40,830 bases of DNA from Gammaproteobacteria bacterium (GTDB lineage: Bacteria; Pseudomonadota; Gammaproteobacteria; Tethybacterales; Persebacteraceae), in the NCBI GenBank assembly GCA_051009035.1, contig JBPCWY010000088.1, forward strand, positions 1 to 40,830, written 5' to 3'. The position numbers and the translations under genes are program-made. Under the pieces are notes generated by a model. The model was not told the origin of the DNA. It saw only the letters and a program-made list of their open reading frames with translations, and did no database searches. Shown piece by piece: positions 1 to 16,925 of this stretch; within the stretch, counting starts at the first letter, position 1; each line of letters begins with the position of its first letter.

Positions 1-6
1 CGCCCG

Positions 7-28
7 CCCCGCAGGCGCGGGGTTTTTT
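7..28 (+). terminator. Intrinsic-terminator-like hairpin closing an off-window upstream gene
   Basis: ccccgc (7-12), loop aggc, gcgggg (17-22), then tttttt (23-28), read directly. Confidence 0.5.
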
Positions 29-93
29 GCGCGCAAATCTCCTTCCCGCGCCGAAATTTATTTCAGCGCGGGGATTGGGAATATCGGATTTTG

Positions 94-102
94 TGGTATA
101 TT
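94..102 (+). promoter_or_regulatory. Extended -10 promoter element TGGTATATT upstream of the GmrSD-like gene
   Basis: tggtatatt at 94-102 (TG-n-TATATT), 48 nt upstream of the ATG at 150. No clear -35. Confidence 0.35.
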
Positions 103-110
103 TCGGCAGA

Positions 111-136
111 CCGCCCGTTTTGGAGGCGGGTTTTTT
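111..136 (+). terminator. Hairpin plus T6 inside the putative leader of the GmrSD-like gene (terminator/attenuator-like)
   Basis: ccgcc (111-115) pairs with ggcgg (125-129), followed by g and tttttt (131-136). It lies between the candidate -10 and the RBS GAGGAG (137-142). Confidence 0.35.
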
Positions 137-149
137 GAGGAGAAATTTT

Positions 150-1784: not shown

Positions 1785-1787
1785 TTA

Positions 1788-1820
1788 CCGCCCGCCGCCG
1801 GTTTTGACCGGAGCGGGCGG
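1788..1820. terminator. Long GC hairpin between convergent genes (bidirectional terminator candidate)
   Basis: ccgcccgc (1788-1795) pairs with gcgggcgg (1813-1820), with inner ccgg/ccgg pairing. No strong T-tract on either side. Confidence 0.4.
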
Positions 1821-1848
1821 GATTAAATCCGCGCACATTAGTGGCGGA

Positions 1849-2439
1849 TTAATGCACCGTCAAATCCGGCTCTTTGCTTAAGTCCAGTTTTTTGGCAAGG
1901 CGCGCGCCTTTTTTGTTCATGGTGATGCTGTCGTAAAAATTTTCCATTGCAATATACGCGCCGTTTTTTTGCGCCCATTGCACCATCCGCGGGTCGCTAA
2001 TTTGCCGCCACGACATAATTTCCACTTTCCAGCCGTTTTTGCGCAGGATAGCCGCATCGCCGAGCAACAACGGCTCGTCCGCAAAACCGCAACCGTCGCC
2101 GGTAATCAGCACGGCGGTGTTTGCGCCGCCGGAATACCGCAACGCATCGCGCAACATTTGCGCCGCTAAAAAATCGGCGCACGAAATTTCCGTTTCGGGG
2201 TTGCGCGAAGCGACTTCCGTTTTGTTTTCGCGCAAACCGTAAATCGCCGTGCGCAACAATTCCATGCCTTTGGGCGCGGCGACTGCAACGCTTGCGATGT
2301 TGCGCCGATTGCGCGCCAACTCAAACAAATTCCGAAAATAAATACTGTCCCAGTGCTCCGCATCATAGTCGGTTTGTATTTCCGCCGCGCCGCTCATTAC
2401 CGAATAGGCGTCCATATAAATGTGAATATTGTCGTTCAT
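1849..2439 (-). CDS. NYN-domain (LabA/DUF88-like, PIN-related) protein
   Basis: MNDNIHIYMDAYS...NTAVLITGDGCGFADEP...LRKNGWKVEIMSW matches the NYN pattern (N-terminal acidic residue, xxSGDxD-like ITGDG, second beta-strand block). The ATG at 2439 is preceded by AAGGAG. The track start at 2493 is an upstream extension. Confidence 0.7.
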   Translation of the reverse strand: MNDNIHIYMDAYSVMSGAAEIQTDYDAEHWDSIYFRNLFELARNRRNIASVAVAAPKGMELLRTAIYGLRENKTEVASRNPETEISCADFLAAQMLRDALRYSGGANTAVLITGDGCGFADEPLLLGDAAILRKNGWKVEIMSWRQISDPRMVQWAQKNGAYIAMENFYDSITMNKKGARLAKKLDLSKEPDLTVH

Positions 2440-2663
2440 TGCCGCTCCTTTTTTATTTAAATAAGGGGCGTATTGTATCATGTAAATTTGCAAAAGTCAA
2501 CCCCTATTGGGGCGTGCAGGCGTAAAACGCGCAAAAAAATTTGTTTGCGCGCGGTTTTTGCGAAGATTTTGGCGGCGGTTTTGGGTTTTGCGGGGAATTG
2601 GCGGGGCGCGTTTTTTTTGCGGCGAAACAAATGCGGCGTTTTGGCGGCGGGGGCGTTTTGGTT

Positions 2664-2669
2664 TATAAT
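2664..2669 (+). promoter_or_regulatory. -10 hexamer TATAAT upstream of icd
   Basis: tataat at 2664-2669. GGAG RBS at 2681-2684. ATG at 2691. Confidence 0.4.
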
Positions 2670-2690
2670 TGCAAAAAAACGGAGCATGCT

Positions 2691-3947
<1,257 letters not shown>

Positions 3948-4077
3948 TTGCGCCGCGCGATATAAAATGCGGGCGGCAATTTCTTGCAGGTTATTTTTAC
4001 CAACAAAAAATAAATGTAAAAAATTGCCGTTCCCGCGAAAACGGAAAATTGGATAACGCCGCATGTTTTGCAGGGAG

Positions 4078-4117
4078 ATTCCCGCTTTCGCGAAAATGGC
4101 GGGAGAATAACGGGAAT
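4078..4117. repeat. Degenerate copy of the ATTCC-N8-GGAAT palindromic repeat family
   Basis: attcccgctttcgcg...gcgggagaataacgggaat lies between convergent icd and mltA and is preceded by gggag, as in other copies (agag). Confidence 0.4.
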
Positions 4118-4222
4118 GGCAAACATGACATGAGCGGCGGGGAGCGGGAATTTTTACAACGCCGTATATTTTGCAAAAGGTTTTTGCTTTTACGGGAATA
4201 GAAATGCGCGAAAGAAATATTA

Positions 4223-5371
4223 TTAACGCGGGAGCAGTATAAAAAGTTTGCCGCGCGTTTTCATTAATCCCGCCATTTTTTCGGCGCGCGCGCCGCGGCC
4301 CCAAAAGAAATCGGCGCGGACATTTCCGGCAATCGCGCCGCCGGTATCCTGCGCAAACATTAACCGCCGCAACGGCGTTTTGCCGTCGTCCGGCATTACC
4401 GTGGAAAGCCAAACCGGCGCGCCCGGCGGAACCGCTTTGGTATCCGCCGCCAAACTTCTTTCCGGCGTAAGCGGCACGCCCAAAGAACCGCGGGGCCCGA
4501 AATTAATATCGTCGCGGCGGGTGAAAAAAACATAACTCGGGTTTTCGTTTAATAAATTTCCGGCGCGATGCGGATTGTCGCGCAGCCATTTTTTCAGCGA
4601 AAACAAATTAACATCTTCGCGCCGCATTTCGCCGCGCTCAATTAAAATGCGCCCGATAGAACGGTAAGGATGCCCGTTTTGGTCTTGGTAGCCGACTCCG
4701 ACAATGCGCCCGTCCCGCAACCGCACCAGCCCCGAACCTTGAATGTGCAAAAAGAAAAGCGCGGCTTTGTCGTCCACCCACAACAATTCTTCGCCGGCGA
4801 GCGGCGCGTTTGCGCCGTCAATTTCGGCGCGGGAATAATACGGCGCGACCGCGCCGTTGTTGATTCGCCCGCGCACCCGTTTATTTTGCAGCTCCGGATA
4901 CAGCGCGCCCAATTCTACGCGCAACAAGCCGGCGGGGCGCGCATATACCGGATAACGAAATGTTTCCGACCGCGCGACCGCGCCTTCCAACAACGGCTCG
5001 TAATAGCCGGTAATTAATCCTTCATCGTTTCCGTTTTCGTTTAATAATTGAACCGGCGAAAAATGATTCTCAAAAAAACGCCGCGCGGCAATATCCGAAA
5101 TATTTTCCGGCAACAATTTCGCCGCCGCACAAGGCGCATCCCACGCGCCGCGCAGTTTTTCGCAACTGCGCAAAAATACCGGCAACGTTTTCGCGTGCGC
5201 GTCTTCGGTCCACCCCGGCAATTCTTCCCACGACATTGCGCGGCGGGATGTTTCCGGCGCGACAAAAGCGCATCCGGAAATTAATCCAAAAATTAGCATG
5301 CACAAAAAAATTTGAACCGCGCAAGCCGCGCAATCGCCGCGCGAAATTTTACCCGCCAATATTTTACGCAT
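4223..5371 (-). CDS. mltA: Membrane-bound lytic murein transglycosylase A (lipoprotein)
   Basis: Signal peptide with lipobox (LISGC). Contains MltA domain motifs (ITGYYEP, YRSIGRILI) and a 3D domain (FAQDTGGAIAGNVRADFFWG). The ATG at 5371 overlaps the upstream stop as TAATG. The 492-aa track ORF is an Arg-rich N-terminal extension. Confidence 0.85.
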   Translation of the reverse strand: MRKILAGKISRGDCAACAVQIFLCMLIFGLISGCAFVAPETSRRAMSWEELPGWTEDAHAKTLPVFLRSCEKLRGAWDAPCAAAKLLPENISDIAARRFFENHFSPVQLLNENGNDEGLITGYYEPLLEGAVARSETFRYPVYARPAGLLRVELGALYPELQNKRVRGRINNGAVAPYYSRAEIDGANAPLAGEELLWVDDKAALFFLHIQGSGLVRLRDGRIVGVGYQDQNGHPYRSIGRILIERGEMRREDVNLFSLKKWLRDNPHRAGNLLNENPSYVFFTRRDDINFGPRGSLGVPLTPERSLAADTKAVPPGAPVWLSTVMPDDGKTPLRRLMFAQDTGGAIAGNVRADFFWGRGARAEKMAGLMKTRGKLFILLPR

Positions 5372-6303
5372 TACGCGCGCCCGTAAATCCGGCGGCATGC
5401 CGCTTCCGCTTCCGCGGCGGTGATATGATAACCTTGTCCGCCTTGGCGCGCGGCTTTGACGCCCGCAATGACGGAAGCGAATTGCAATATTTGCGGCCAC
5501 TTCCATTCGCGCTGCAAGCCGTAAATTAATCCCGCGCGGTAGGCGTCCCCGCAGCCGGTCGTGTCCGCCGTTTTGCCGAATGTTGCCGCCGTTGTGCGGT
5601 GCGTTTGTCCGCCGGTATGCGCTTCGGAACCGGCGTCTCCGCGGGTGATAATCATCGTTTGTTTTTCGCCCGTCCGCGCATCGCCCGCGGTTTTTTGGCA
5701 AAATTCGTATTCATCTTGGTTAAAAACGGCGATTTGGCACAGCGCGAGAATCTCCCGCAACTCTTCGCCCGCAAGCAATCCGATTGCTTGTCCGGGGTCA
5801 AAAATAAACGGCGTTTTTGCCGCCGCCAATTCGCGCCCAAAATGCAGCATCGCTTCGCGCCCGTTGGGGCTGACAATCGCCATCGCGGGCGGGGCGGACA
5901 AATCGCCGATGCTTTGCCGGTGCGCTTCGGCGCTTGCGCCGGGGTGGAATAAAATAATTTGGCTTTCGTCGTCGTCGCTTGCCAAAAACGCCTGCGCGGT
6001 ATACGCGCCGCCGATTGTTTTCACATGCAAATCGCTAATGCCGCAACGGCGCAGATGGTCCCGGTAGGGGGAAAAATCTTCGCCCACCGCCGCCATCAAC
6101 AGCGGCGAACCGCCCAGCAAGTTTAATCCGAAAGCGATATTCCCGGCGCAACCGCCAAACGCCCGCCGCATGGACGGGACGGTAAACGCCGCGCTAAATC
6201 CGGCGGCTTGCGGGTCGGGCAGGCGGGCGGCAAAACGCCCGCCGATGCGCATGATGTAATCAAACGCCAGCGCGCCGATAATTAAAACTTCGTCCGTTGC
6301 CAT
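5371..6303 (-). CDS. PfkB-family carbohydrate/nucleoside kinase (adenosine-kinase-like)
   Basis: FDYIM...GGCAGNIAFGLNLLGG...FHPGA...TRGDAGS...DTTGCGDAYRAGLIYGL (PfkB signature 2, DTxGAGD-like). Confidence 0.8.
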   Translation of the reverse strand: MATDEVLIIGALAFDYIMRIGGRFAARLPDPQAAGFSAAFTVPSMRRAFGGCAGNIAFGLNLLGGSPLLMAAVGEDFSPYRDHLRRCGISDLHVKTIGGAYTAQAFLASDDDESQIILFHPGASAEAHRQSIGDLSAPPAMAIVSPNGREAMLHFGRELAAAKTPFIFDPGQAIGLLAGEELREILALCQIAVFNQDEYEFCQKTAGDARTGEKQTMIITRGDAGSEAHTGGQTHRTTAATFGKTADTTGCGDAYRAGLIYGLQREWKWPQILQFASVIAGVKAARQGGQGYHITAAEAEAACRRIYGRA

Positions 6304-6356
6304 GTTTTCCGCGCTATTTTAACGCAACGGGCGTTTTTTTCGGCGCGCGCCGCGCG

Positions 6357-6365
6357 TGCTACAAT
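6357..6365 (+). promoter_or_regulatory. Extended -10 TGCTACAAT upstream of gor; predicts a leaderless mRNA
   Basis: tgctacaat at 6357-6365. The ATG at 6372 is 6 nt after the hexamer. No SD sequence is possible. Confidence 0.45.
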
Positions 6366-6371
6366 AGAAAT

Positions 6372-7715
6372 ATGAAATGCGATTTGCTGGTTATCGGAGG
6401 CGGCAGCGGCGGCGTGCGCGCGGCGCGTTTGGCGGCGGCATCCGGCGCGCGCGTGGTGCTTGCCGAAAAAAGCGCGCTGGGCGGGACTTGCGTCAATGTC
6501 GGCTGCGTGCCGAAAAAATTATTCGTCTTCGCGTCTTCATTCGGCGAAGAAACGGAATGCGCCGCCGCATTTGGCTGGCAAAACGCCGCGCCGGGCGATT
6601 TTAATTGGGATATTTTGCGCGAAAACAAAGACCGCGAAATCCTCCGCCTAAACGCAGTATACGCCGAATTGTTAAACAAAGCGGGCGTGGAAGTCGTCCC
6701 CAAAGCGGCGCGGCTTTTGGGCGGACAGCGCGCGGACATCGGCGGCGCGGAAGTGGAAGCCGAAAAAATTCTAATCGCTTGCGGCGCAGTTCCGGCGCGC
6801 CCGCCGTTGCCGGGGGCGGAGCATGGCGTGTTGTCGGACGACATGTTTTATTTGCCGAAACTCCCCCGCCGCGCGGCGGTTATCGGCGGCGGCTATATCG
6901 CGTTGGAGTTCGCCGGAATCTTATCCGGGCTGGGCGTGGAAACGACAATCTGCCACCGCGCCGAATTACCGTTGCGCGGATTTGACGACGATTTGCGCGC
7001 CCACCTCGCCGCCGAAACCGCCAAACGCGGAATCGCCGTCCGCGCCGGAATCGCCCCCGCCGCGATTGAAAATAAAAACGGCGCGCGGCGCGTAGTTTTT
7101 GCGGACGGAAGCGCGCTGGAAGCGGATTTGGTCCTGCTCGCGACCGGGCGCAAACCGGCGTTTTCCGGACTCGGTTTAGAAGCCGCGGAAATTGTCCCAA
7201 ACGCCCGCGGCTTTTTAGAAACGGACGAAGATTACCAAATCAAAAACCGCCCCGGCATTTACGCCATCGGCGATGTCCTGCAAACCCCGGCGTTGACGCC
7301 GGTCGCAACCGCCGAAGCCGGCGTGTTTATCGCGCGCGTTTTCGGCGGCGACAAAACGGCGGCGGTAGATTACGCGCATTTACCCACCGCCGTATTTTCG
7401 CGCCCGCAACTCGCTACCGCCGGCATGAGCGAATCGGCGGCGGCGGTGGCGGGCATTAAAACAAAAATATACAAAAGCGAATTTCGCGCGATGAAACGCG
7501 GCTTTGCCGGAAAAGAATGGCAAACATTAATGAAACTTGTCGTGCGCGAAGAAGACGGGCGCGTTTTGGGCGCGCACCTAATCGGCGAAGACGCGGGCGA
7601 AATCATCCAAGGATTCGCCGTCGCCCTGCGCTGCGGCGCAAGCAAAAACGATTTTGATTCCACCGTCGGCGTCCACCCGACCACCGCCGAAGAATTTGTA
7701 ACAATGCGCGGCTAA
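6372..7715 (+). CDS. gor: Glutathione-disulfide reductase (class I pyridine nucleotide-disulfide oxidoreductase)
   Basis: VIGGGSGG (FAD), redox-active GGTCVNVGCVPKK, C-terminal HPTTAEEFVTMR interface motif. Confidence 0.88.
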   Translation: MKCDLLVIGGGSGGVRAARLAAASGARVVLAEKSALGGTCVNVGCVPKKLFVFASSFGEETECAAAFGWQNAAPGDFNWDILRENKDREILRLNAVYAELLNKAGVEVVPKAARLLGGQRADIGGAEVEAEKILIACGAVPARPPLPGAEHGVLSDDMFYLPKLPRRAAVIGGGYIALEFAGILSGLGVETTICHRAELPLRGFDDDLRAHLAAETAKRGIAVRAGIAPAAIENKNGARRVVFADGSALEADLVLLATGRKPAFSGLGLEAAEIVPNARGFLETDEDYQIKNRPGIYAIGDVLQTPALTPVATAEAGVFIARVFGGDKTAAVDYAHLPTAVFSRPQLATAGMSESAAAVAGIKTKIYKSEFRAMKRGFAGKEWQTLMKLVVREEDGRVLGAHLIGEDAGEIIQGFAVALRCGASKNDFDSTVGVHPTTAEEFVTMRG

Positions 7716-7793
7716 CGCAAAAATTTTTCCGCCAACCGCCGCCGCGTTTTTTTTGCGCGCGCGGGCGCGGCAAAGGACTGCAAATATTATTTT

Positions 7794-8435
7794 ATGATGG
7801 GCGAAACATTCATCGTTGCGCTGGCGACTTTTTTTGCCACCGTCGGGCCTTTTGATGTGGCGGCGGTATACGCCGCATTGGGCGCGCGTCTTAGCGCGGC
7901 GGAAAAACGGCGCATGGCGGCGCGCGGCGTTTTATTGGCGGGCGCGATTTTATTCGTCTTCGCCTTTGCCGGAGAATCGCTATTGCGCGCGCTGGGAATT
8001 TCGCTGCCCGCCTTTCGCGCCGCGGGCGGCGTGTTGCTTTTACTCATCGGCATAGACATGGTTTTCGCGCGGGAATCGGGCGGCGCATCCACGACAAAAG
8101 AAGAAAACATGGACGCGGCAACGCGCGGCGACATTTCGGTTTTTCCGCTGGCGCTCCCGCTCATCGCCGGTCCCGGCACGATGGGCGCGGTATTGCTTTT
8201 AACCACCGGCGCGGAAGGCGAATGGGCGGCGCAGGCGGAGGTATTATTCGCGCTGTTTTTAATTTTGCTGTTAACTTGGTCGTCCATGCTGGTCGCCAAC
8301 CGCCTGCAAAAACTTCTCGGCATAACCGGAATGCATGTAATCGGCCGCGTCTTCGGCGTTTTACTAACCGCGCTGGCAATGCAATTCATCTTTGACGGCA
8401 TAGCCGAAAGCGGAATCCTAACCGCGGCGGGTTGA
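7794..8435 (+). CDS. MarC-family (UPF0056/NAAT) integral membrane protein
   Basis: Six hydrophobic segments. FPLALPLIAGPGTMGAVLLL is the typical MarC motif. Confidence 0.8.
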   Translation: MMGETFIVALATFFATVGPFDVAAVYAALGARLSAAEKRRMAARGVLLAGAILFVFAFAGESLLRALGISLPAFRAAGGVLLLLIGIDMVFARESGGASTTKEENMDAATRGDISVFPLALPLIAGPGTMGAVLLLTTGAEGEWAAQAEVLFALFLILLLTWSSMLVANRLQKLLGITGMHVIGRVFGVLLTALAMQFIFDGIAESGILTAAG

Positions 8436-8441
8436 TTTTTT

Positions 8442-8450
8442 TGGTATACT
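8442..8450 (+). promoter_or_regulatory. Extended -10 TGGTATACT upstream of the orphan membrane-protein gene
   Basis: tggtatact at 8442-8450. RBS aaaggaa lies upstream of the ATG at 8487. This is the same TGGTATA(T/C)T form as upstream of the GmrSD gene. Confidence 0.4.
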
Positions 8451-8486
8451 AACGGCTAACGGCGCGTTTGCGCGGAAAGGAACAAT

Positions 8487-9020
8487 ATGGAAAAAACAAA
8501 AGATTACCAAGAAAAATCCGAATATTTGCGCGAAGCAATTCGGCTGGTTGAGTTGCGGCTGGAGCAGCAGCAAAAATCTTCCGATGAAAATCAGCGAAAA
8601 GCGGCGTTATTAATTACATTTTGCGTTGCCGTAATCGGTTATTTATACGCCGAACAACCGGACGAGTCCGGAGTATATTTGCCGCTCGCGCTTTGGTGGA
8701 CGGTCAAAGTTATATTGGCGGTTATTTTGGGGGCGGCTGTTTTTTACGGTCTGCAAGTCGTGGATATTAAAAAATGGGGAGTTTCAGGAGCCGACCCCGC
8801 TTATGTAGACTCGCGTTTTGGGTGGGATTTTAATCAAATGGCGGAAGAACTGTTGGATGGCTATAAAGAATGTTTTGATATAAATAAGGGAAATTTAGAA
8901 AAGAAAGTAAAAAAATTAAAAATAGCCAGAAATTTGGGCATACTTGGAATAACACTTTCTCTCCTATGGATTGTTATGGAAAGAATTTCTTATATTGTTT
9001 GTTTTTGGGCGGACAAATAA
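8487..9020 (+). CDS. Orphan 177-aa membrane protein: N-terminal charged helix followed by 3 predicted TM segments
   Basis: The ORF is AT-rich relative to its neighbours, with good RBS context. TM candidates are AALLITFCVAVIGYLY, WWTVKVILAVILGAAVFYGLQVV and LGILGITLSLLWIVMERISYIVCFW. I cannot assign a family from sequence alone. Confidence 0.65.
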   Translation: MEKTKDYQEKSEYLREAIRLVELRLEQQQKSSDENQRKAALLITFCVAVIGYLYAEQPDESGVYLPLALWWTVKVILAVILGAAVFYGLQVVDIKKWGVSGADPAYVDSRFGWDFNQMAEELLDGYKECFDINKGNLEKKVKKLKIARNLGILGITLSLLWIVMERISYIVCFWADK

Positions 9021-9041
9021 TTTAAACCGGCAGTAAACGGA

Positions 9042-9200
9042 TTAAAATCCGCGGTTTTCGCACGAATCGCGTTTAGGAGGATTCGCGGTATTTTCTTCTA
9101 TGGAATCCAAAATCGGCCGGTGACGGACCGCATCGGATTCCGGCGGTTGCGATGCCTCCGGCGGTTGGGCGGGCTTGGGCTTTGTCTCTTCTTCGGGCAT
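9042..9200 (-). CDS. Micro-ORF A, 52 aa, acidic and Pro-rich: MPEEETKPKPAQPPEASQPPESDAVRHRPILDSIEENTANPPKRDSCENRGF
   Basis: Hand-translated; below the 60-aa track cutoff. The ATG is 3 nt after the stop of micro-ORF B. It is a paralogue of ORF B, sharing PPEA.QPP..DA, LDS.EE, DS.E.RGF-stop, with synonymous codon differences (GAT TCG vs GAC TCT; CAA vs CAG; TCC vs TCA). Confidence 0.5.
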   Translation of the reverse strand: MPEEETKPKPAQPPEASQPPESDAVRHRPILDSIEENTANPPKRDSCENRGF

Positions 9201-9203
9201 TTT

Positions 9204-9368
9204 TTAAAATCCGCGGTCTTCGTAAGAGTCAAGTTCGGGGCGCTTCAACGCTTTTTCTTCCGTTGAATCCAAAGCCGGCTGGTTGCTATAGAGCGCATCG
9301 GGTTGCGGCGGCTGCACTGCCTCCGGCGGCGGAGCGGATTCGGCGGGTTTTTTGTATTCTTCCGTCAT
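9204..9368 (-). CDS. Micro-ORF B, 54 aa, acidic and Pro-rich: MTEEYKKPAESAPPPEAVQPPQPDALYSNQPALDSTEEKALKRPELDSYEDRGF
   Basis: Hand-translated. The ATG at 9368 is preceded by GAGGA (9380-9376) with 7-nt spacing and by a near-consensus promoter. Confidence 0.55.
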   Translation of the reverse strand: MTEEYKKPAESAPPPEAVQPPQPDALYSNQPALDSTEEKALKRPELDSYEDRGF

Positions 9369-9399
9369 TTTTGTTTCCTCGTAAAAAACAATCCCCTAC

Positions 9400-9429
9400 A
9401 TCATACCACACCGCCCCCCGCCTTGTCAA
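9400..9429 (-). promoter_or_regulatory. Near-consensus sigma70 promoter TTGACA-18 nt-TATGAT driving the micro-ORF pair
   Basis: Minus strand: TTGACA at 9429-9424 (overlaps the TGA stop of the Type IIG gene), 18-nt spacer, TATGAT at 9405-9400. Confidence 0.6.
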
Positions 9430-12400
9430 GCCCACGGCGGGGGCATTTTTTCGGTTATTGCCGCTGTTTGGGCGAGGGCGGTTATTAGGTGGGCGTAGGC
9501 GCGCTGGTCTTTGTATTTTAGGGTTCGGGTTTTGCGGTCTTTTAGCCATTTTTCGGCGGGGCGGTAGCCGCCTATTGTTAAATTCCATGCCGCTTGGGGG
9601 ACGCCGCTGAAATGGGATTTGGCGTTTATGTTTATTTTTAGCGTTTTGTTGTCCTGCTCCGGTTTGACAAATTCTACAACGCAGGAGTCGCCGTGAAATT
9701 GCACGGCGTTGTCGTCCAGCGATTTTTCTTCCAGCAAATGTAAACGGCGCAATTCGCCGCCGGTTTTTGCCGTCTGCGCGAAATGCGTTTTGTTTTGCGG
9801 CTTGGGAATGCGCGCGAAATTTATTTTTAAAAACTCCGCGTATTTTTTGCGGTAATACGGGTTATGCAAAACCGCGTAGACATAATCCAAAATTTGCGGC
9901 GGCGTTATGCAGTCCGCCCCGCCGTTTTCGGCGTAAGACATGCCGGCGGCGGCGGCGATTTTTTCGGCAAACTCCGGCGCGATATTTGCGCGCTTTTCGG
10001 TTTTGCCGTGCATCTCTTCGTAAAGATACAGCGGAATGCAATAAGTTTGGTCGCTTGCCGCATGCAGGTCGGCGATGCAGGAAGTTATAAAACCCCGGTC
10101 AAAAATTTCTTTTTCCGGGATTGTCCGGGAAACAAGAAGCGCAAGATTATCGCGCTTAATGAAATGGTCCATTACTTTATTTCTGGACCGCCCCAAGAAA
10201 CCGCCGGAGGTTCCGGTATAGCAAATTCGCCGATTGTCAAAAGGGCGATAACAAATATCAGCGTAAACGAATTTTCGTTTCGCTAAATCATTTTTGGCGG
10301 ATTGAAAATTCCAACCGGAAGAATCTTTTTTGTTGCTGTATTTTTGTTTTAATTGTTCCACGCCGAGAGAAAGAAAATCGTTAACAACCGTTTCCAGCGA
10401 TTTTTGTTCAAAATGCACGGACAATTCATCGCACTTTGTCTGAATGCCGGAGTTATACACGGGAAACAAATCCGTAATTGAAACGCCCTCATCGTAATTT
10501 TCCTGCGCGGAAAAATCTTTCGGCAAAAAGAAATAATACGGCGCATGCGGCGAAAGGGTTTGGAGTTTCATGTTTCCCAAATCCGCGCCCAACAAAAAGT
10601 CAAATTTCGCCTGCTGTTTGCCGTAGCAGTCGACGTAAAAAACTTCCGCATCGGAATCGGAGTCGCCGGTTTTTACCATCACGGTAATTCCCACGCCCAC
10701 GCCGATGCTAAAAACATTTTCGTCTTTTCCGCCGCCCGGCTCGGTTTCGCCGATTTTGCCATGCAAATTAAGAATATAAATTTTATCAAAAGCGCGGAGC
10801 AAATGTTCGCGCATCTGCCGGTGCGTTATGCCGCCGTAAAAAGAATTATTAGTAATAAACGCGACAACGCCGCGCCCGGTTTTTTCCGCCACCAGCCATT
10901 CGGCGTTGCGGATAAATTTAATGTAATCGTCGTCCAGATTAAGTTTGCGTTCGCGCAATCCTTTTTTGTAATCCGCCAGCAACTCGATAATGTGCGCGCC
11001 GCGGTTTTGCGATTTTACATTATAAGGCGGGTTGCCCAGCACGACCATCACGGGCGTTTTGTTTTTAACCTCGTCGGCGGCTTGCGCTTCTTCGTCCAGC
11101 CAGCCGATTCCCATTTGGCCGTGTTCGCCGTAGTCCAGCGCATCGGTTAAGAAAACATTAACGCGTTTTTTTGACCGGCGCAACTTCTCCATAATATCGT
11201 TTCCCAACGCCAGCGCAAATTTGATATGGCAAACGCTGTATGCGCTCATCATATTTTCAAACCCGTATAAACGCGGCAACAATTCTTCCAGCGCGTAATT
11301 TTCCCAACCGCCGCGCGGATTGATTTCCGTTTTAATCGTTTCCAAGATTTTCGCCAAAAACGCGCCGGTGCCGGCGGCGGGGTCCAAAATTTGGACGGTA
11401 TGCAATTCCGCATTCGCATCATGCGGATTTTTGGTTTTTCCCGAGTCCGCGAGTCCGCGCGGCGCGTCCTCAAAAAATTCCCGCAAACAATAATCCGCGG
11501 CGCGGACAATAAAATCCACAACGGGCGGCGGCGTGTAATATACGCCCTGCTTGCGGCGCAATTTTCCGTCGTAGCGGTCCAAAAAAGTTTCGTAAAAATG
11601 CATGAACGGGTCGGCGTCCGCGCGGAGGGCAAAAGCGGCGGCGATGTTTTCCATGCTAACGCCGCGCAAATATGCGGCGGTATTGTCGGCGGCGATGGCT
11701 AAATCTTCGTCCAAATCTTGCTGCATAAACTGGTTGAAAAATTTGCGTAAAAACGGAGTCGTGTGCGGCAACAATTCTCCGGCAACGGCGCGCGAAAATT
11801 CATGCGCGCGGTTTTCTTGGTCGGCTTGCAGGCGCGCGGTAAAAAGCGCATATACGGCGGTTTGCGCGAAAATATCGGCAAACGCGGCGGGCGTTAAACC
11901 CTGCATTAAGTTTTTGCAAAATGCTTCGTATAATTGGATTAAATCGCGGTCGTCTTTTTCCATGGCGGCTTCGGCGCGCCGTTTAATTTCTTTGGCTTTT
12001 TGCGCCAATTCCGCGGCGAGTATTTCGGGGCTTGGCGATTCGTTTGCGCCCGCGCCCGCCGCGGCAAAAACGCGCAAAAACTCCGCCAATTCTTCGGCGC
12101 GCGCGGTTGAAACCGGCGGATGCATTTTGCCCCCGCGGATTTCGTCCGCCAGCCGCGCCGGTTTTTGCGCCCGCCCGTTGTCGTAGCGGCGAAATTCCAA
12201 ATAATCGGTGAGGACGAGATTGGAAAATCCGCGGCGGTAGCGTTGCAGCTGTTCCGATTTTTCTTCGCGGTCTAAATTGGCGCCAATATCTTTTGTTTCC
12301 ACATGCCCGACAAGCGCGCCGCTTTTCCATTGCACCCGAAAATCGGGCGAGCAGGAATCGTTGCGCTCGCCTTCGTTAATTGCCTGCGCGCCGGGGATGA

Positions 12401-12530
12401 CGGCGCATAACAGGTCTTGCAAACAGGCGCGGTAGGCGTGTTCTCGCGCCCGTCCGCTTGCGCGTAATTCGGCGGCTTTTTTGGCGTATTCGCGGACGGC
12501 GCGAATATCATTTTGTATTTTTGTTTTCAT
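9426..12530 (-). CDS. Single-polypeptide Type IIG/IIL restriction-modification enzyme: N-terminal PD-(D/E)xK nuclease, gamma-class N6-adenine methyltransferase, Type-ISP/MmeI-like C-terminal specificity domain
   Basis: N-terminus has SPDFRV...GHVETKD (D...ExK). MTase motif X is GVYYTPPPVVDFIV, motif I is ILDPAAGTGAFL, motif IV is VVLGNPPYN. C-terminus has YRPFDNRRICY and IGGYRPAEKWLKDRKTRTL, typical of MmeI/Type ISP target-recognition modules. No helicase domain. The ATG at 12530 is preferred over the ATG at 12578, whose extension is MGFRFCENRQILGRPT. Confidence 0.8.
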   Translation of the reverse strand: MKTKIQNDIRAVREYAKKAAELRASGRAREHAYRACLQDLLCAVIPGAQAINEGERNDSCSPDFRVQWKSGALVGHVETKDIGANLDREEKSEQLQRYRRGFSNLVLTDYLEFRRYDNGRAQKPARLADEIRGGKMHPPVSTARAEELAEFLRVFAAAGAGANESPSPEILAAELAQKAKEIKRRAEAAMEKDDRDLIQLYEAFCKNLMQGLTPAAFADIFAQTAVYALFTARLQADQENRAHEFSRAVAGELLPHTTPFLRKFFNQFMQQDLDEDLAIAADNTAAYLRGVSMENIAAAFALRADADPFMHFYETFLDRYDGKLRRKQGVYYTPPPVVDFIVRAADYCLREFFEDAPRGLADSGKTKNPHDANAELHTVQILDPAAGTGAFLAKILETIKTEINPRGGWENYALEELLPRLYGFENMMSAYSVCHIKFALALGNDIMEKLRRSKKRVNVFLTDALDYGEHGQMGIGWLDEEAQAADEVKNKTPVMVVLGNPPYNVKSQNRGAHIIELLADYKKGLRERKLNLDDDYIKFIRNAEWLVAEKTGRGVVAFITNNSFYGGITHRQMREHLLRAFDKIYILNLHGKIGETEPGGGKDENVFSIGVGVGITVMVKTGDSDSDAEVFYVDCYGKQQAKFDFLLGADLGNMKLQTLSPHAPYYFFLPKDFSAQENYDEGVSITDLFPVYNSGIQTKCDELSVHFEQKSLETVVNDFLSLGVEQLKQKYSNKKDSSGWNFQSAKNDLAKRKFVYADICYRPFDNRRICYTGTSGGFLGRSRNKVMDHFIKRDNLALLVSRTIPEKEIFDRGFITSCIADLHAASDQTYCIPLYLYEEMHGKTEKRANIAPEFAEKIAAAAGMSYAENGGADCITPPQILDYVYAVLHNPYYRKKYAEFLKINFARIPKPQNKTHFAQTAKTGGELRRLHLLEEKSLDDNAVQFHGDSCVVEFVKPEQDNKTLKININAKSHFSGVPQAAWNLTIGGYRPAEKWLKDRKTRTLKYKDQRAYAHLITALAQTAAITEKMPPPWA

Positions 12531-12555
12531 TGTTGGGCGTCCAAGTATTTGTCTA

Positions 12556-12573
12556 TTTTCGCAAAAGCGAAAA
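12556..12573. promoter_or_regulatory. Perfect 7-bp-stem palindrome in the leader of the Type IIG gene
   Basis: ttttcgc-aaaa-gcgaaaa at 12556-12573, 26 nt upstream of the ATG at 12530. Confidence 0.3.
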
Positions 12574-12602
12574 CCCATTTTATACTACAAACCCGTAAAA
12601 AG

Positions 12603-12622
12603 ATTCCCGCTTTTGCGGGAAT
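12603..12622. repeat. 20-bp palindromic repeat ATTCCC-N8-GGGAAT (dRS3-like)
   Basis: attcccgcttttgcgggaat. Confidence 0.8.
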
Positions 12623-12671
12623 GGCGAAAGGGGGAATATTTATCTTTTGCGGATTTTTGGAATGCGAAGAG

Positions 12672-12691
12672 ATTCCTGCCTTCGCAGGAAT
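12672..12691. repeat. 20-bp palindromic repeat ATTCCT-N8-AGGAAT (same family)
   Basis: attcctgccttcgcaggaat, preceded by agag as in other copies. Together with 12603-12622 it brackets a 49-bp block. Confidence 0.8.
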
Positions 12692-12733
12692 GACGGGTTG
12701 GGCAGGAATGGACGGGTTGGGCAGGAATGACGG
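12684..12733 (+). repeat. Tandem 18/19-nt direct repeat, about 2.7 units, seeded from the right arm of the palindrome
   Basis: gcaggaatgacgggttgg / gcaggaatggacgggttgg / gcaggaatgacgg. Confidence 0.85.
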
Positions 12734-12793
12734 AGAGGATGGAAATGGGGTAGCGGCTTGCAGTTAATGCCAAAATGCCGGCTTTTATTCTTT

Positions 12794-13276
12794 TTATTTC
12801 GCCCAGATTCCGCGGCGGGCTTTTTTGGCGCGTTTTTCGGCGGCGGCTAATTTGGCGGGGGTTAAATGAGGCGCGCAGTTTTGTGAAAATCTTTTGTAGT
12901 GTTTGGCGCTTCCCAGTTCCACCATTTTTTCGTTTGCCGAAACGGCGTTGCCGCGCGCATGCATGATTACGACTTTGCGTTTGTATTTGTCTATATCCAT
13001 TACGCGGGCGGAAATTTTGCCGCGCCCCAGCAACCGCGCCAGCATTTTTGTCGTCCGTTCGTATAACGGGTGGTTGTATTCCGGCGCTTGGATTCCGCAT
13101 AGGCGGAATTTGTTGCGCCCGTAGTTTACCGAGTCGCCGTCTACGACGCGAAATTTGGAAGAAGACGCGTTGAGCGTATAAACTTTTTCCGCCGCGTTGC
13201 CCGCCAACATTGGTGCGGCAATTAAAACGGCGCATGCCGCAAGCCGCGCGTAAAATGTTCGCCGCGCCGTTTTCAT
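12794..13276 (-). CDS. Secreted staphylococcal-nuclease-like thermonuclease (SNase fold)
   Basis: Signal peptide MKTARRTFYARLAACAVLIAAPMLAG. Contains VVDGDS...FRLCGIQAPE, DKYKRKV and AKKARRGIW, typical of the SNase family. The ATG is 1 nt after the aceB stop (TAAAATG). Confidence 0.85.
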   Translation of the reverse strand: MKTARRTFYARLAACAVLIAAPMLAGNAAEKVYTLNASSSKFRVVDGDSVNYGRNKFRLCGIQAPEYNHPLYERTTKMLARLLGRGKISARVMDIDKYKRKVVIMHARGNAVSANEKMVELGSAKHYKRFSQNCAPHLTPAKLAAAEKRAKKARRGIWAK

Positions 13277-13277
13277 T

Positions 13278-14840
13278 TTACAACAACGGATAGGCGGCGA
13301 GCGTTAGAAAGCCGGGCATTTCCGTAGCGGTCGCCATGGATTCTAAAATGTCGGCGGCGGCGGACAAGTGTTCGCTTTCGCCGCTTTTTTCCATTTCGTT
13401 TTTGGCGGCTTGCAACCGGCTGGCAAACAAGGACGCGCCGATTTCGCGCCCGTCCGACAACTTCGCCGAATAGCGCATCCATTGCCATAATTGCGCGCGC
13501 GAGATTTCGGCGGTCGCCGCGTCTTCCATCATATTAAAAATCGGCACCGCGCCCGCGCCGCCCAGCCACGCCGAGATGTAGCGCAACGCGACTTGGATGT
13601 TGTTGTCAAATCCGGCGAGGGATATTTCGCCTTCCGGCGCGGTCAAAAAATCTTCGGCGGCGCGTTTGCCGGGGGGGATGATGTGTTTTTGGTGCGCGTT
13701 TGGCATCGCTTCGTCAAACGCCCCGGCGGCGACGGGAATTAATCCGGGATGCGCGACCCAAGTGCCGTCGTGCCCGTCTCCGGCTTCGCGTTTTTTGTCT
13801 TCCAAAACTTTCGCCATCGCGGCGCGGTTGGCGTTTTCGTCGTCGCGAATCGGAATGAACGCCGACATGCCGCCCATCGCGTGCGCGCCGCGCCGGTGGC
13901 AGACGGAAATTAATTCCAGCGAATAGGCGCGCATAAACGGGCTCGCCATCGTAACTTCGGCGCGTTGCGGCAGGACATGCGCGGCGTGCCGGTTTAAGGT
14001 TTTGATGTAGGAAAAAATGTAATCCCACCGCCCGCAATTCAACCCGACAAGCCGCCCGCGCATGGCATGCAAAATTTCATGCATCTGAAAAACGGCGGGC
14101 AGGGTTTCCACCAGCAAAGTCGCCTTGGCGCAGTTTGGCGGCAGGGCGAGTTCTTTTTCGGCGAAATCCATAATGTCGTTCCACAGCGCGGCTTCGCGCC
14201 AGTGTTCGGTTTTCGGCAAATAAAAATAAGGACCGCGGTTTTTGTCATGCAGTATTTTTGCGCAATGAAAAAAGAACAGGGCAAAATCGGCGAGCGCGCC
14301 GGAAAGCGGGCGCCCTTTCCACAAAATATTTTTTTCCGGCAAATGCCACCCGCGCGGGCGGACGATTAAACGGCATTCGCCGTCCGGATTTAACGCGTAA
14401 GTTTTGCCGCGCGCCGCGTCTTCAAATGTGCAATCCCCGCGCGCGGCGTCAAACAGCGCTTGTTGTCCGCGCGCGATGTTTTCCCAAACGGGCGACAGGG
14501 AATCTTCCAAATCCGCCATGAAAACTTTGGCGGGGGAGTTGAGCGCTTGGATGATTTTTTTGCGCTCGGCGGGGGCGGTGATTTCCACGCGCCGGTCCAA
14601 CAGCCCGGCGGGCGGCTCGGCGACTTGCCATTCGCTTGCGCGGATTTCTTTTGTTTCGCCGTGAAAACCGGGCGGCGCGCCTTCGTCAAACCGCCGCTGC
14701 GCTTCGTTGCGCGCGTCCAGCAGGGTTTCGCGGCGGGACGAAAAGCGCGCGGCGATTTTTTCCAGAAACGATTCGGCTTCCGGCGTAAAAATATCCGGAC
14801 ACCATTCGCCGAATTTACCGCGGTTTTTAATTTCCAACAT
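13278..14840 (-). CDS. aceB: Malate synthase A
   Basis: 520 aa. Contains LLDRRVEITAP, KVFMADLEDS, LNCGRWDYIFSYIK and GHDGTWVAHPGLI. The ATG at 14840 is preceded by GAGGA with 6-nt spacing. Confidence 0.95.
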   Translation of the reverse strand: MLEIKNRGKFGEWCPDIFTPEAESFLEKIAARFSSRRETLLDARNEAQRRFDEGAPPGFHGETKEIRASEWQVAEPPAGLLDRRVEITAPAERKKIIQALNSPAKVFMADLEDSLSPVWENIARGQQALFDAARGDCTFEDAARGKTYALNPDGECRLIVRPRGWHLPEKNILWKGRPLSGALADFALFFFHCAKILHDKNRGPYFYLPKTEHWREAALWNDIMDFAEKELALPPNCAKATLLVETLPAVFQMHEILHAMRGRLVGLNCGRWDYIFSYIKTLNRHAAHVLPQRAEVTMASPFMRAYSLELISVCHRRGAHAMGGMSAFIPIRDDENANRAAMAKVLEDKKREAGDGHDGTWVAHPGLIPVAAGAFDEAMPNAHQKHIIPPGKRAAEDFLTAPEGEISLAGFDNNIQVALRYISAWLGGAGAVPIFNMMEDAATAEISRAQLWQWMRYSAKLSDGREIGASLFASRLQAAKNEMEKSGESEHLSAAADILESMATATEMPGFLTLAAYPLL

Positions 14841-15123
14841 GTTATATCCTCGCAAAAAAAACAGAAAAAAACAGAAGCGAATTTTACGCCATGCGCCGCC
14901 CGTTTGCCAAACCCGCCGCGCGTAATTTTACCAACAAAACGGCGGCGGCAAACGCCCAAAACGGAAAATTGCCTGCACAAAATTTCCGCCGCAATTTTAT
15001 TCTACCGCGCGGGAATAAAAAATGCGCCCGCAATGTTTACCGCAAAAAATATAAACCGCCGCATGCAATTTTTTGCCGCGCAATTTGCCGCGGCGGAGTT
15101 TGCAAAAAACGCCGCGTAAAAAA

Positions 15124-15198
15124 TGGTGGGCGCTGCTGGGATTGAACCAGCGACCTCCGCCGTGTGAAGGCGGCGCTCTCCCACTGAGCTAAGCGCCC
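15124..15198 (-). tRNA. tRNA-Val (anticodon CAC), CCA-encoded
   Basis: The reverse complement folds as a cloverleaf: acceptor gggcgct/agcgccc, D arm gctc/gagc, anticodon stem ccgcc/ggcgg with loop ttCACac, T arm gctgg-ttcaatc-ccagc, 3' acca. Confidence 0.93.
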
Positions 15199-15229
15199 CA
15201 AACGCGTATTTTACCGCACGGCGGGGCGC

Positions 15230-16078
15230 TTACAGCCGCAGCGCGCCGTCAAATACAAAATTGATTTTGCCTTGCAGCCACGCCGCTTTGCCCGGACTCC
15301 AGCCGCACAGCAATTCGCCGCCCGGCATCGTAATCCGCACCGGGCTTTGGAGCGCGCCGCCGCGCATTAACACCACCGCCGCCGCCACAGCACCGCTGCC
15401 GCAGGACGGCGTTTCGCCCGCGCCGCGTTCATAAACGCGCACCGCCGCGCCGTCTTTGGTTTTTTGGCAAAAGCCGACATTGACCCCTTCGGCAAACAGC
15501 CGCCGGTTGGTATTGAGCGTTTCGCCGGCGGCGGTTAAATCGTCTTCGGCGGCGGCGATAAATACCGCGTGCGGGTTGCCCAGCGACAAGGCGGCGAAAC
15601 GCCCGGGCAGCGACATGCCGCCTTCCGCCGCCGCCGCCGCATACCAGAGTTGTTCTTTTTTGCGGCTTAATGGAATTTTGTGCGGGGCGAATTCGGGCGC
15701 GGCGAGATAAGCGCGGATTCCGTTTTTGCCCGCGTCTTCGGTTTGGATGGCGGCGGTTTTGGTTTGCAGGCGCAGGCGCGTTTTGGCGGCGAGTTTGGCG
15801 CGCCGCAAAAACGCGTGCGCGCAACGCGCCCCGTTGCCGCATTGCCCGACTTCGCCGCCGTCCGCATTAATGATGCGGTAGGCGAAATCGGCGCGGGCGT
15901 TGCGCGGCGGTTTTTGTAAAATGAGAATTTGGTCGCATCCGATTCCGGTCCGGCGCGCCGCGATTTGCGCCGCCGGAAACGGCTCCGGAAGCGTTTGGCG
16001 GACGGCGTCAATAACGACAAAATCGTTGCCGCAACCGTGCATTTTAGAAAACTTAATTTCGCGCGGGCGTTTACGCAT
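15230..16078 (-). CDS. dapF: Diaminopimelate epimerase
   Basis: IKFSKMHGCGNDFVVID, QCGNGARC and a second catalytic Cys in ETPSCGSGAVA. The ATG at 16078 overlaps the upstream stop (ATGCGTAA). The 457-aa track ORF is an extension. Confidence 0.93.
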   Translation of the reverse strand: MRKRPREIKFSKMHGCGNDFVVIDAVRQTLPEPFPAAQIAARRTGIGCDQILILQKPPRNARADFAYRIINADGGEVGQCGNGARCAHAFLRRAKLAAKTRLRLQTKTAAIQTEDAGKNGIRAYLAAPEFAPHKIPLSRKKEQLWYAAAAAEGGMSLPGRFAALSLGNPHAVFIAAAEDDLTAAGETLNTNRRLFAEGVNVGFCQKTKDGAAVRVYERGAGETPSCGSGAVAAAVVLMRGGALQSPVRITMPGGELLCGWSPGKAAWLQGKINFVFDGALRL

Positions 16079-16925
16079 ACAAATTTTCCCCGCCTTCCGG
16101 GCGCGTTTTAAACCGGCGGTGCAGCCAGTAATATTGCGCGGGAGTTTCGCGCACATGCCCGCCGATGAGCGCGTTGATTCGGACCGCGTCTTGCACGGCG
16201 TCGGGACCGGGAAAATCTTCCAGCGGCGGCGACAATTGAAAACGGTAACCGTCCGCAACGAGGGCGGCGGTAAATATGCGGACTTCCGCGCCGCTGATTT
16301 CGGCAAGCCGCGAAAGCGCCGTCGTAGTCGCCGCGGGCACGCCCATAAACGGCGCAAACGCCGTATTTTTGCGCCGTCCCGCATCGGCGTCCGGCAAATA
16401 AAACAACGCGCCCCCGCGTTTGAGATGGCGCGCGCAAACGAGCATCGCGTTTTTGCCGGCGGGCGCGCCGACCGCGCCGTATTGCGTCCGCAAGCGCGCG
16501 TAAAAGCGGTTCCAAAATTGGTTGTGCAATGGTTTGTAATGAAACAAAATGCGCCCGCCGAGCAAGGCGGACAAGCGGACGCCGCCGATTGTCGCGGCGG
16601 CAAAATGGGGCGCGCAAAAAATTACCGGACGCCGCTCTTGCAAATCTTCTTCGTTGTCCACCGCCAAACGGCGGCGGATTTCTTGTTTTGGCATGCCGAG
16701 AAAAAAACATTCGTCCAAAAATACTTTGCCCAAAGTTTGGAAGTGGCGGCGCAAAATATTTTCCCGTTCTTCGGGCGGCAGGCGCGGAAACGCCAGCGAT
16801 AAATTGCGCGCCGCCACGCGCCGCCGCACGCCCGCCAACCGCGCCAAATCCCCCACCCGCGCGCCCAAAAACCGCCGCGCCGAAAACGGCAAACGCCCCA
16901 AAAACCGCAACGCGCGCATGCGCAT
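16071..16925 (-). CDS. Lipid A biosynthesis lauroyl/myristoyl acyltransferase family (LpxL/HtrB-like)
   Basis: NLSLAFPRLPPEERENILRRHF...VIFCAPHF...YLPDAD. Length and motifs match the LpxL/LpxM family. The start overlaps the mrcA stop as TAATG. Confidence 0.8.
   Translation of the reverse strand: MRMRALRFLGRLPFSARRFLGARVGDLARLAGVRRRVAARNLSLAFPRLPPEERENILRRHFQTLGKVFLDECFFLGMPKQEIRRRLAVDNEEDLQERRPVIFCAPHFAAATIGGVRLSALLGGRILFHYKPLHNQFWNRFYARLRTQYGAVGAPAGKNAMLVCARHLKRGGALFYLPDADAGRRKNTAFAPFMGVPAATTTALSRLAEISGAEVRIFTAALVADGYRFQLSPPLEDFPGPDAVQDAVRINALIGGHVRETPAQYYWLHRRFKTRPEGGENLYA

Follow-up and report, generated by a model that had tools for sequence, protein, structure and literature searches.

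Tandem micro-ORFs between a Type IIG restriction enzyme gene and a convergent membrane gene form an orphan family with a proposed membrane-protein partner

SpoIISA is a toxin with three transmembrane (TM) segments that is neutralised by the small, natively disordered protein SpoIISB; SpoIISC, a tandem duplicate of SpoIISB, serves as a second antitoxin, and C-terminal residues of the antitoxin are critical (PMC4926146, PMC3057836). In B. subtilis, SR7/SR7P acts as an antisense RNA and at the same time encodes a small protein, which makes it a dual-function RNA (PMC7834092). Here, we analyzed a stretch of 40,830 nucleotides (nt) of gammaproteobacterial DNA (the window; contig JBPCWY010000088.1 of assembly GCA_051009035.1), in which two tandem micro open reading frames (micro-ORFs) lie between the gene of a Type IIG restriction-modification enzyme and a convergent gene for a membrane protein. 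The two encoded peptides represent a new orphan micro-protein family, set within an arrangement of IIG gene, micro-ORF and membrane gene that is both conserved and mobile; diverged counterparts, missed by sequence searches, are traceable through synteny. By analogy with SpoIISA/SpoIISB/SpoIISC, we tentatively read the micro-proteins as labile cytosolic partners of the convergent three-TM protein within a low-GC mobile IIG cassette, a reading to which we assign a probability of about 35%.

A sequence-only reading of this DNA had proposed a TTGACA-18-TATGAT promoter, a GAGGA motif 7 nt before an ATG, and two ORFs of 54 and 52 amino acids (aa), all of which were confirmed on the minus strand (Table 1). 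Specifically, the −35 hexamer occupies 9429–9424 and includes the TGA with which the Type IIG gene ends, and the −10 hexamer lies at 9405–9400, with an extended −10 TG at 9408–9407 and a predicted transcription start site near 9393. ORF2 begins 3 nt past the stop of ORF1 and has no good Shine-Dalgarno (SD) sequence of its own, making translational coupling likely. ORF1 shares its reading frame with the Type IIG gene (window 9368–9428); read-through of the IIG stop into ORF1 was rejected, as an in-frame TAG is present at 9401–9399.

ORF2 is a tandem paralogue of ORF1, as had been proposed: the peptides are 52% identical (pairwise BLASTP E = 4e-13) and the DNA is 73% identical, the only length differences being two 3-nt indels that keep the frame. 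Differing codons encode 7 of the 29 identical residues, and the synonymous differences listed in the sequence-only reading (GAC TCT versus GAT TCG, CAG versus CAA, TCA versus TCC) are all present. Identity at codon positions 1, 2 and 3 amounts to 0.72, 0.81 and 0.66, the third position being the least conserved. The ratio of nonsynonymous to synonymous substitution rates (dN/dS) between the copies, a check that the sequence-only reading had suggested, was 0.47 by the Nei-Gojobori method, which is below 1 and of marginal significance on just 35 synonymous sites (Fisher p about 0.03–0.08); the other frames gave 0.46–1.5, one antisense frame being close to 0.47. In addition, a codon-usage log-likelihood trained on the long genes of the window was computed for all six frames. 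In the proposed frame it reached +0.37 bits per codon for ORF1 and +0.24 for ORF2, near the level of the 177-aa membrane gene, while the remaining five frames scored negative or near zero. These coding statistics favor the proposed frame, within a small sample, and the micro-ORFs are real, paralogous and probably translated, with a strong promoter of their own. On the opposite strand, a 152-aa ORF (window 9152–9610, plus) overlaps the IIG 3′ end, the promoter and ORF1 in antisense; its codon-usage score is negative over the micro-ORFs, and chance in GC-rich sequence is its most likely origin.

Table 1. Features of the micro-ORF locus, in window coordinates (pI, isoelectric point).
Feature	Coordinates	Strand	Details
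Micro-ORF promoter, sigma-70 type	9400..9429	−	11/12 match; extended −10 TG
Shine-Dalgarno GAGGA (9380–9376) and 7-nt spacer before ORF1 ATG (9368)	9369..9380	−	
Micro-ORF 1	9204..9368	−	54 aa: MTEEYKKPAESAPPPEAVQPPQPDALYSNQPALDSTEEKALKRPELDSYEDRGF; net charge −6; 17% Pro; pI 4.3
Micro-ORF 2	9042..9200	−	52 aa: MPEEETKPKPAQPPEASQPPESDAVRHRPILDSIEENTANPPKRDSCENRGF; net charge −4; 19% Pro; pI 4.8
Convergent membrane protein	8487..9020	+	177 aa; GC 40% versus about 60% in flanks
Type IIG / Type ISP-like restriction-modification enzyme	9426..12530	−	1034 aa; upstream of the micro-ORFs, same strand

Searches for relatives of the peptides bore out the earlier statement that they belong to no recognized family. 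Neither peptide matched Pfam (hmmscan, E ≤ 1), NCBIfam, PADLOC, PHROGs or the PDB. A k-mer search of 5.8 billion clusters with a peptide returned the query itself and nothing further, and an exhaustive HMMER search of all 1.84 billion representatives with a two-peptide profile returned just both window peptides. A back-translated peptide pattern gave zero matches in genome and metagenome contig DNA, and Rfam cmscan of positions 8000–10000 on both strands (E ≤ 1) gave none. The sequence-only reading had allowed that the region might be a decayed piece of a known proline-rich gene such as a TonB/TolA linker; this candidate was not supported, since neither the exhaustive profile search nor the DNA scans found such a relative.

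Synteny revealed what these searches missed. On a TARA scaffold (L004), the IIG homologue is 59% identical to that of the window, the second-closest found. Its stop is overlapped, as in the window, by a promoter (TTGACT-18-TG-TAGAAT), followed by AAGGAGG and an ATG, and the distance from the first base of the IIG stop codon to the micro-ORF ATG is 60 nt in both loci. The micro-ORF encodes 53 aa (MPEDRKPPQNPPAPAAVRAQPRPQNKENSKFDYPDKRGNSNPVPKSWETNRRF; net charge +5, pI 10.3), and from about 12 nt past its stop a strong hairpin precedes the convergent gene of a 179-aa membrane protein. The frame stays open between the IIG TGA and this micro-ORF (L004 9094–9156), with an additional in-frame ATG at the predicted transcription start site (9130). 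The genes flanking the cassette are completely different in L004 and the window, indicating that the IIG gene, the micro-ORF and the membrane gene move together. A scan with the membrane-protein alignment recovered a third locus, JAAGOD010047328.1 (L006), also represented by a longer Logan contig (L010) from SRR11301537, a run listed in a study of sponge holobionts from an Okinawa Trough hydrothermal vent (PMC8518922). There, the gene of a 175-aa membrane homologue lies just after valS and faces a 25-aa micro-ORF (MPEDNKPAPVPQDFRPPAYPQKRGL; net charge +1, pI 8.3) with the signals TTGACA-17-TG-TAAACT and AAGGAGA. The final codons and stop of this micro-ORF lie within a 9-bp intrinsic terminator whose 5′ arm falls in the R-G-L codons and whose loop sits on the stop, and the 110 nt preceding the promoter bear no resemblance to a IIG C-terminus. 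Three marine loci are thus known, at least one of them host-associated (sponge holobiont).

Across the three loci, the −35/extended −10 promoter, the SD sequence and the ATG are kept at equivalent relative positions. All four intact peptides share the N-terminus M-[PT]-E-[ED]-x(1-2)-K-P, a proline content of 17–28% with PP motifs, and the C-terminus [DNK]-R-[GR]-[FL]-stop. The Pro2 codon varies synonymously between loci (CCC, CCA, and CCT in the remnant described below), while the final 12 nt are near-identical in every copy (CGC-sGA-TTw-TAA). Net charge is not conserved (−6 and −4 in the window, +5 in L004, +1 in L010), and pI ranges from 4.3 to 10.3. The acidity pointed out in the sequence-only reading therefore holds for the window peptides and is not a trait of the family.

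Two further IIG loci, L009 and L014, carry a collapsed micro-ORF remnant right after the IIG stop (TGTGGTAGGGTGAAATTATGCCTTAAAAACCGCCGATTC), and the membrane gene is absent in both. In the remnant, a deletion has joined the extended −10 and the ATGCC start to the AAACCGCCGATT 3′ end of an L004-type ORF, and the collapsed ORF reads ATG-CCT-TAA. These two stretches (L009 8133–8235 and L014 5678–5780; IIG homologues P0008 and P0011) come from one metagenome. Their IIG genes are about 76% identical in DNA and 69% in protein, while the final ~80 nt of the IIG gene and ~100 nt of 3′ flank are 95–98% identical, which points to either recent recombination at the 3′ end or a conserved element at the end of the cassette.

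Such losses bear on a second interpretation, in which the ORFs are lineage-specific neutral or decaying sequence, transcribed from a promoter at the 3′ end of the IIG cassette and devoid of a selected peptide function. The ORF disappeared in L009 and L014 while the IIG gene survived, the interior of the peptide is not kept across loci and its length varies twofold, and no homologue beyond the two peptides was found among about 15 billion predicted proteins. The dN/dS of 0.47, resting on few synonymous sites and similar in one antisense frame, is compatible with this interpretation, as is the 152-aa chance ORF on the opposite strand, which indicates that long open frames arise easily here. On the other hand, the promoter, SD sequence, ATG, MPE[DE]xKP and R[GR][FL] are kept although the flanking proteins are just 40–59% identical, both window copies are intact in start, stop and frame at about 27% nucleotide divergence, and the positive codon-usage score is confined to the ORF frame. 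We therefore consider neutral or decaying sequence unlikely, though still to be reckoned with.

The tightest association of the micro-ORF is with the membrane gene: all three membrane homologues found (window, L004, L006/L010) face an intact micro-ORF. By comparison, six IIG relatives of 47–61% identity (L003, L008, L012, L013, L014, L015), the closest (61%) included, lack an intact module, which links the micro-ORF with the membrane gene and not with restriction activity and shows that the IIG enzyme does not need the peptide. In L009 and L014, the intact micro-ORF and the membrane gene are absent together, a case of co-loss. Of the link to the neighboring genes that had been proposed from the window, the shared arrangement thus stood, recurring as a whole in L004 and as a micro-ORF/membrane-gene pair in the sponge contig, whereas dependence on the IIG enzyme did not.

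These observations also weigh on the idea that the micro-proteins serve the Type IIG enzyme as accessory factors, for instance by tempering restriction in the manner of an acidic DNA mimic or an anti-nuclease. The ORFs lie immediately downstream of the IIG gene on the same strand, their promoter overlaps its stop, the 60-nt distance from stop to ATG is shared with L004, and the window peptides are acidic (pI 4.3 and 4.8). However, pI values of 10.3 in L004 and 8.3 in L010 make the counterparts basic or near neutral, the intact ORF is missing next to the six IIG relatives, and no IIG-like C-terminus precedes the L010 promoter. Neither peptide matched a PADLOC model, and PHROGs yielded no anti-restriction match. 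The DNA-mimic or anti-nuclease role raised by the sequence-only reading is weakened in particular by the charge reversal, because acidity is not shared by the counterparts, and we regard an accessory role of this type as improbable. The recurrence of the mini-genes facing the same membrane gene in two other marine bacteria suggests that they are probably a small partner module carried with the restriction enzyme; the module is most plausibly of the small-partner/membrane-protein kind, a general kind already known, and not a DNA mimic.

The 177-aa membrane protein is predicted to comprise an N-terminal cytoplasmic helix, a TM hairpin (about residues 39–57 and 62–95), a soluble segment and a C-terminal TM segment (about 146–173). 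The soluble segment is conserved (DIKKWGVxGAD...FGxDFNxMAExLL), and the protein is 44% identical to the L004 homologue (179 aa) and 42% to the L006/L010 homologue (175 aa). No Pfam family was assigned to the window, L004 or L006 proteins (hmmscan, E ≤ 10). Sub-significant similarity to PycTM and two-TM (2TM) effector profiles was observed over the TM hairpin alone (PADLOC PDLC02364 and PDLC00700, E = 0.008 and 0.013), PycTM being matched weakly by two of the three homologues. Scans of viral contigs, plasmids and phages for the 177-aa protein, as well as a PDB profile search, found nothing. A k-mer search returned the protein itself alone and overlooked two homologues present in its collection, so the size of the membrane family and the co-occurrence counts are lower bounds.

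A membrane protein beside tandem, precursor-like small genes with a conserved C-terminal motif could also indicate that the ORFs encode the precursors of a secreted or modified peptide (a ribosomally synthesized and post-translationally modified peptide, RiPP, or a signaling peptide) that the neighboring protein processes or exports. Against this, the peptides lack a signal sequence and are strongly hydrophilic, the genes converge instead of forming an operon, and neither Pfam nor NCBIfam gave a RiPP-family match. Moreover, the cassette holds no modifying enzyme, protease, ABC exporter or leader/double-glycine motif, and no RiPP maturation or export genes were found within the island or its flanks. 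This role, likewise suggested in the sequence-only reading, consequently found no backing in the gene content, and we give it very little credence.

In the partner reading that we prefer, the micro-ORFs would encode small, proline-rich, probably disordered cytosolic proteins of a lineage-restricted family, to be recognized solely by its N-terminal MPE[DE]xKP, its PP motifs and its C-terminal R-[GR]-[FL], and produced at a high level from the near-consensus constitutive promoter, probably with additional read-through from the IIG gene. The micro-proteins would bind the cytoplasmic parts of the ~177-aa three-TM protein and hold it inactive, acting as an antitoxin-like or regulatory partner of which the window carries a tandem-duplicated copy. 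The pair would travel with the Type IIG gene as one horizontally acquired cassette, to which it may add a membrane-effector or addiction layer. The net charges of the cytoplasmic segments of the membrane protein and of the cognate peptide are +1 versus −6/−4 in the window and −3 versus +1 and −6 versus +5 in the other loci; this opposition in sign is suggestive only (n = 3).

Several observations weigh against a specific partner of this sort. Partner genes of type II toxin–antitoxin (TA) systems are normally co-directional, and here they are convergent. The peptide interior is unalignable between loci (window versus L004, BLASTP E = 3.6), and lengths of 25–54 aa are odd for a specific binding partner. 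The C-terminal motif may partly reflect an RNA or DNA constraint, as the final 12 nt are kept as nucleotides and form a terminator arm in L010. On the side of the membrane protein, the PycTM/2TM-effector likeness falls below significance, and the AlphaFold2 models are too poor to use (predicted local distance difference test, pLDDT, of 48 with a single sequence and a three-sequence alignment alike). Furthermore, the departure of dN/dS from 1 is marginal, and three known loci make the co-occurrence anecdotal.

A serious rival to the partner reading is a translated, cis-acting antisense unit. According to this explanation, transcription from the strong promoter would run convergently toward the membrane gene or into it, acting by interference or through a 3′-overlapping antisense RNA. 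Translation of the micro-ORF would set the extent of the transcript, by shielding it from Rho or by occluding a terminator at the stop, and the PP motifs could sense translation status, the peptide itself being secondary. All three loci share the convergent layout. In the window, 21 nt separate the stops of ORF2 and of the membrane gene, and no intrinsic terminator was detected on the minus strand from ORF2 to the far end of the membrane gene, so that overlap of the transcripts is expected. Plus-strand GC skew is +0.19 to +0.28 over the membrane gene, which would make the antisense RNA C-rich and G-poor, resembling a Rho-utilization site. Between loci, no constraint is seen on the interior, length or charge of the peptide; the 3′ end is kept at the nucleotide level, and the L010 terminator overlaps the stop codon of its 25-aa ORF. 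A precedent exists in the dual-function antisense RNA that encodes a small protein (PMC7834092).

The upstream side of the membrane genes fits a cis-acting unit as well. In all three loci, a housekeeping gene on the same strand precedes them at a distance of 0–51 nt: MarC in the window (gap 8436–8486), an Opp-type ABC ATPase in L004 (4-nt overlap, 9901–9904) and ValS in the sponge locus (L006 657–664; L010). With so short a spacing, a separate promoter would hardly fit, and the membrane genes, which show no obvious one, may depend on read-through transcription.

Against a cis-acting unit, the L004 hairpin between the convergent genes should stop antisense read-through whatever translation does, and the RNA folds at the window ORF ends match shuffled sequence (z = −0.5 to −1.5); apart from the L004 hairpin and the L010 terminator, no fold at an ORF end beat its shuffles. 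Rfam was empty, and no notable complementarity between the micro-ORF RNA and the 5′ region of the membrane gene was found. The window paralogues also retain LDSxEE and DSxExRGF with synonymous changes, which a model based purely on the act of translation does not require. We hold this explanation to be doubtful on balance, and less so than that of neutral sequence. An 11-mer, GGATTTTAATC, occurs twice in the region, at 8825–8835 (+) in the conserved W-D-F-N codons of the membrane gene and at 9040–9050 (−) in the stop region of ORF2. Since both RNAs carry the identical sequence, the copies would not pair, and the recurrence is probably a coincidence.

Returning to the partner reading, a bolder extension would make the IIG enzyme, the micro-ORF(s) and the three-TM protein an undescribed three-part defense cassette. 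A labile, over-produced micro-protein, or the act of translating it, would serve as the fuse of a membrane-disrupting effector, such that phage shut-off of transcription or translation, or loss of the cassette, would lead to membrane damage as a second line behind restriction. We consider this extension speculative and decidedly unlikely. The orphan module is well supported as such, and its function is predicted. If the pairing is functional, it would represent a new micro-protein and membrane-protein sequence family alongside a restriction enzyme, joining the toxin–antitoxin and defense-accessory modules. It would also be a clear example of a small protein beyond all sequence-based homology detection that can be followed via synteny and two short terminal motifs. 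Such an example would be useful for small-protein annotation and for understanding how restriction-modification cassettes gain addiction or abortive-infection functions.

The window corresponds, in reverse complement, to contig CCYFMT010000031.1 of the NCBI metagenome-assembled genome (MAG) GCA_973583445.1 ("Gammaproteobacteria bacterium"). Although the sequence-only reading had described the pair as unannotated, both micro-ORFs were called as genes in that MAG and deposited as hypothetical proteins, the 54-aa protein under locus tag ACR2P5_03935. Over 19 kb, 33 differences, of which 31 are substitutions and 2 are single-base indels, separate window positions 1–19368 from the MAG contig (L001). 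These cluster outside the island, and none falls inside 8073–13721, so the comparison is uninformative on selection in the ORFs. The Logan assembly of SRR33949959 contains an identical 4.3-kb copy of window 8413–12693. The window and the MAG therefore represent two strain variants with an identical cassette.

GC content dips from about 0.60 to 0.40–0.53 over roughly 8.4–13.2 kb (51% in the IIG gene), and this drop against the flanks argues for a horizontally acquired island. The low-GC island (window 8400–13300) comprises the membrane gene, the micro-ORFs, the IIG gene and probably the gene of a 160-aa SNase-like secreted nuclease (12794–13276, −). Farther away, a GmrSD_N (DUF262)-type gene (window 27–1784, +), labeled through the Pfam label of the matching MAG gene (L001 17585–19219), may encode a type IV restriction enzyme and lies about 7 kb away from the IIG cassette; the region may thus be rich in defense genes.

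Compared with described systems, the gene upstream of the micro-ORFs is a clear member of the Type IIG/Type ISP enzymes (Pfam Type_ISP_C, 7e-70, with N6_Mtase, MmeI_Mtase and Eco57I; PADLOC REase_MTase_IIG, 748 bits); a search of genome contigs with the protein gave no match. The micro-ORFs, by contrast, are no known component of Type IIG systems, and most sampled relatives of the enzyme occur without them. Membership among Ocr- or ArdA-like DNA mimics was rejected, with charges of −6, −4, +5 and +1 and no Pfam, PHROGs, PADLOC or PDB match. The membrane protein recalls the 2TM/PycTM effectors of CBASS and Pycsar in being a small helical TM-hairpin protein in a defense-gene neighborhood. Unlike these, its profile scores are far from significance and reflect hydrophobic helices only, and no cyclase, nucleotide-binding domain or CD-NTase lies nearby; with best E-values of 0.008 and 0.013 and no cyclase in the locus, we did not assign it to the PycTM or CBASS 2TM families. 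Effectors of the 2TM/PycTM type are not known to be paired with micro-ORFs.

Some antitoxin RNAs of type I TA systems are convergent with, and overlap the 3′ end of, their toxin genes. As in SR7/SR7P-type RNAs, the present locus has a short, strongly promoted unit convergent to its neighbor, the 5′ part of which encodes about 25–54 aa, and the window transcript is predicted to overlap the 3′ end of the facing gene. It differs from type I TA systems in that their toxins are hydrophobic and shorter than 60 aa, whereas the putative toxin here has 177 aa, and from antisense-overlap systems in that a hairpin separates the convergent genes in two of the three loci (L004, L010).

The comparison with SpoIIS is the closest to the reading proposed here. 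SpoIIS is found in Firmicutes, in contrast to the marine gammaproteobacterial MAG and unclassified marine contigs of this family, and no sequence relationship was detected (Pfam at E ≤ 1 for the peptides and E ≤ 10 for the three membrane homologues; NCBIfam). SpoIISA has 248 aa, with three N-terminal TM segments and a C-terminal cytosolic domain, whereas in the 177-aa protein described here a soluble segment separates a TM hairpin from the third TM; spoIIS is a single operon of co-directional genes, and the genes of the window are convergent. SpoIISB is a protein of 56 aa. In gene content, both loci combine a multi-TM membrane protein with very small cytosolic partners, putative ones in the window, encoded by two adjacent genes that arose by tandem duplication and have a promoter of their own, and the small partner is disordered, natively in SpoIISB and probably here. 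The resemblance of this locus to SpoIIS is one of functional analogy, not of family membership.

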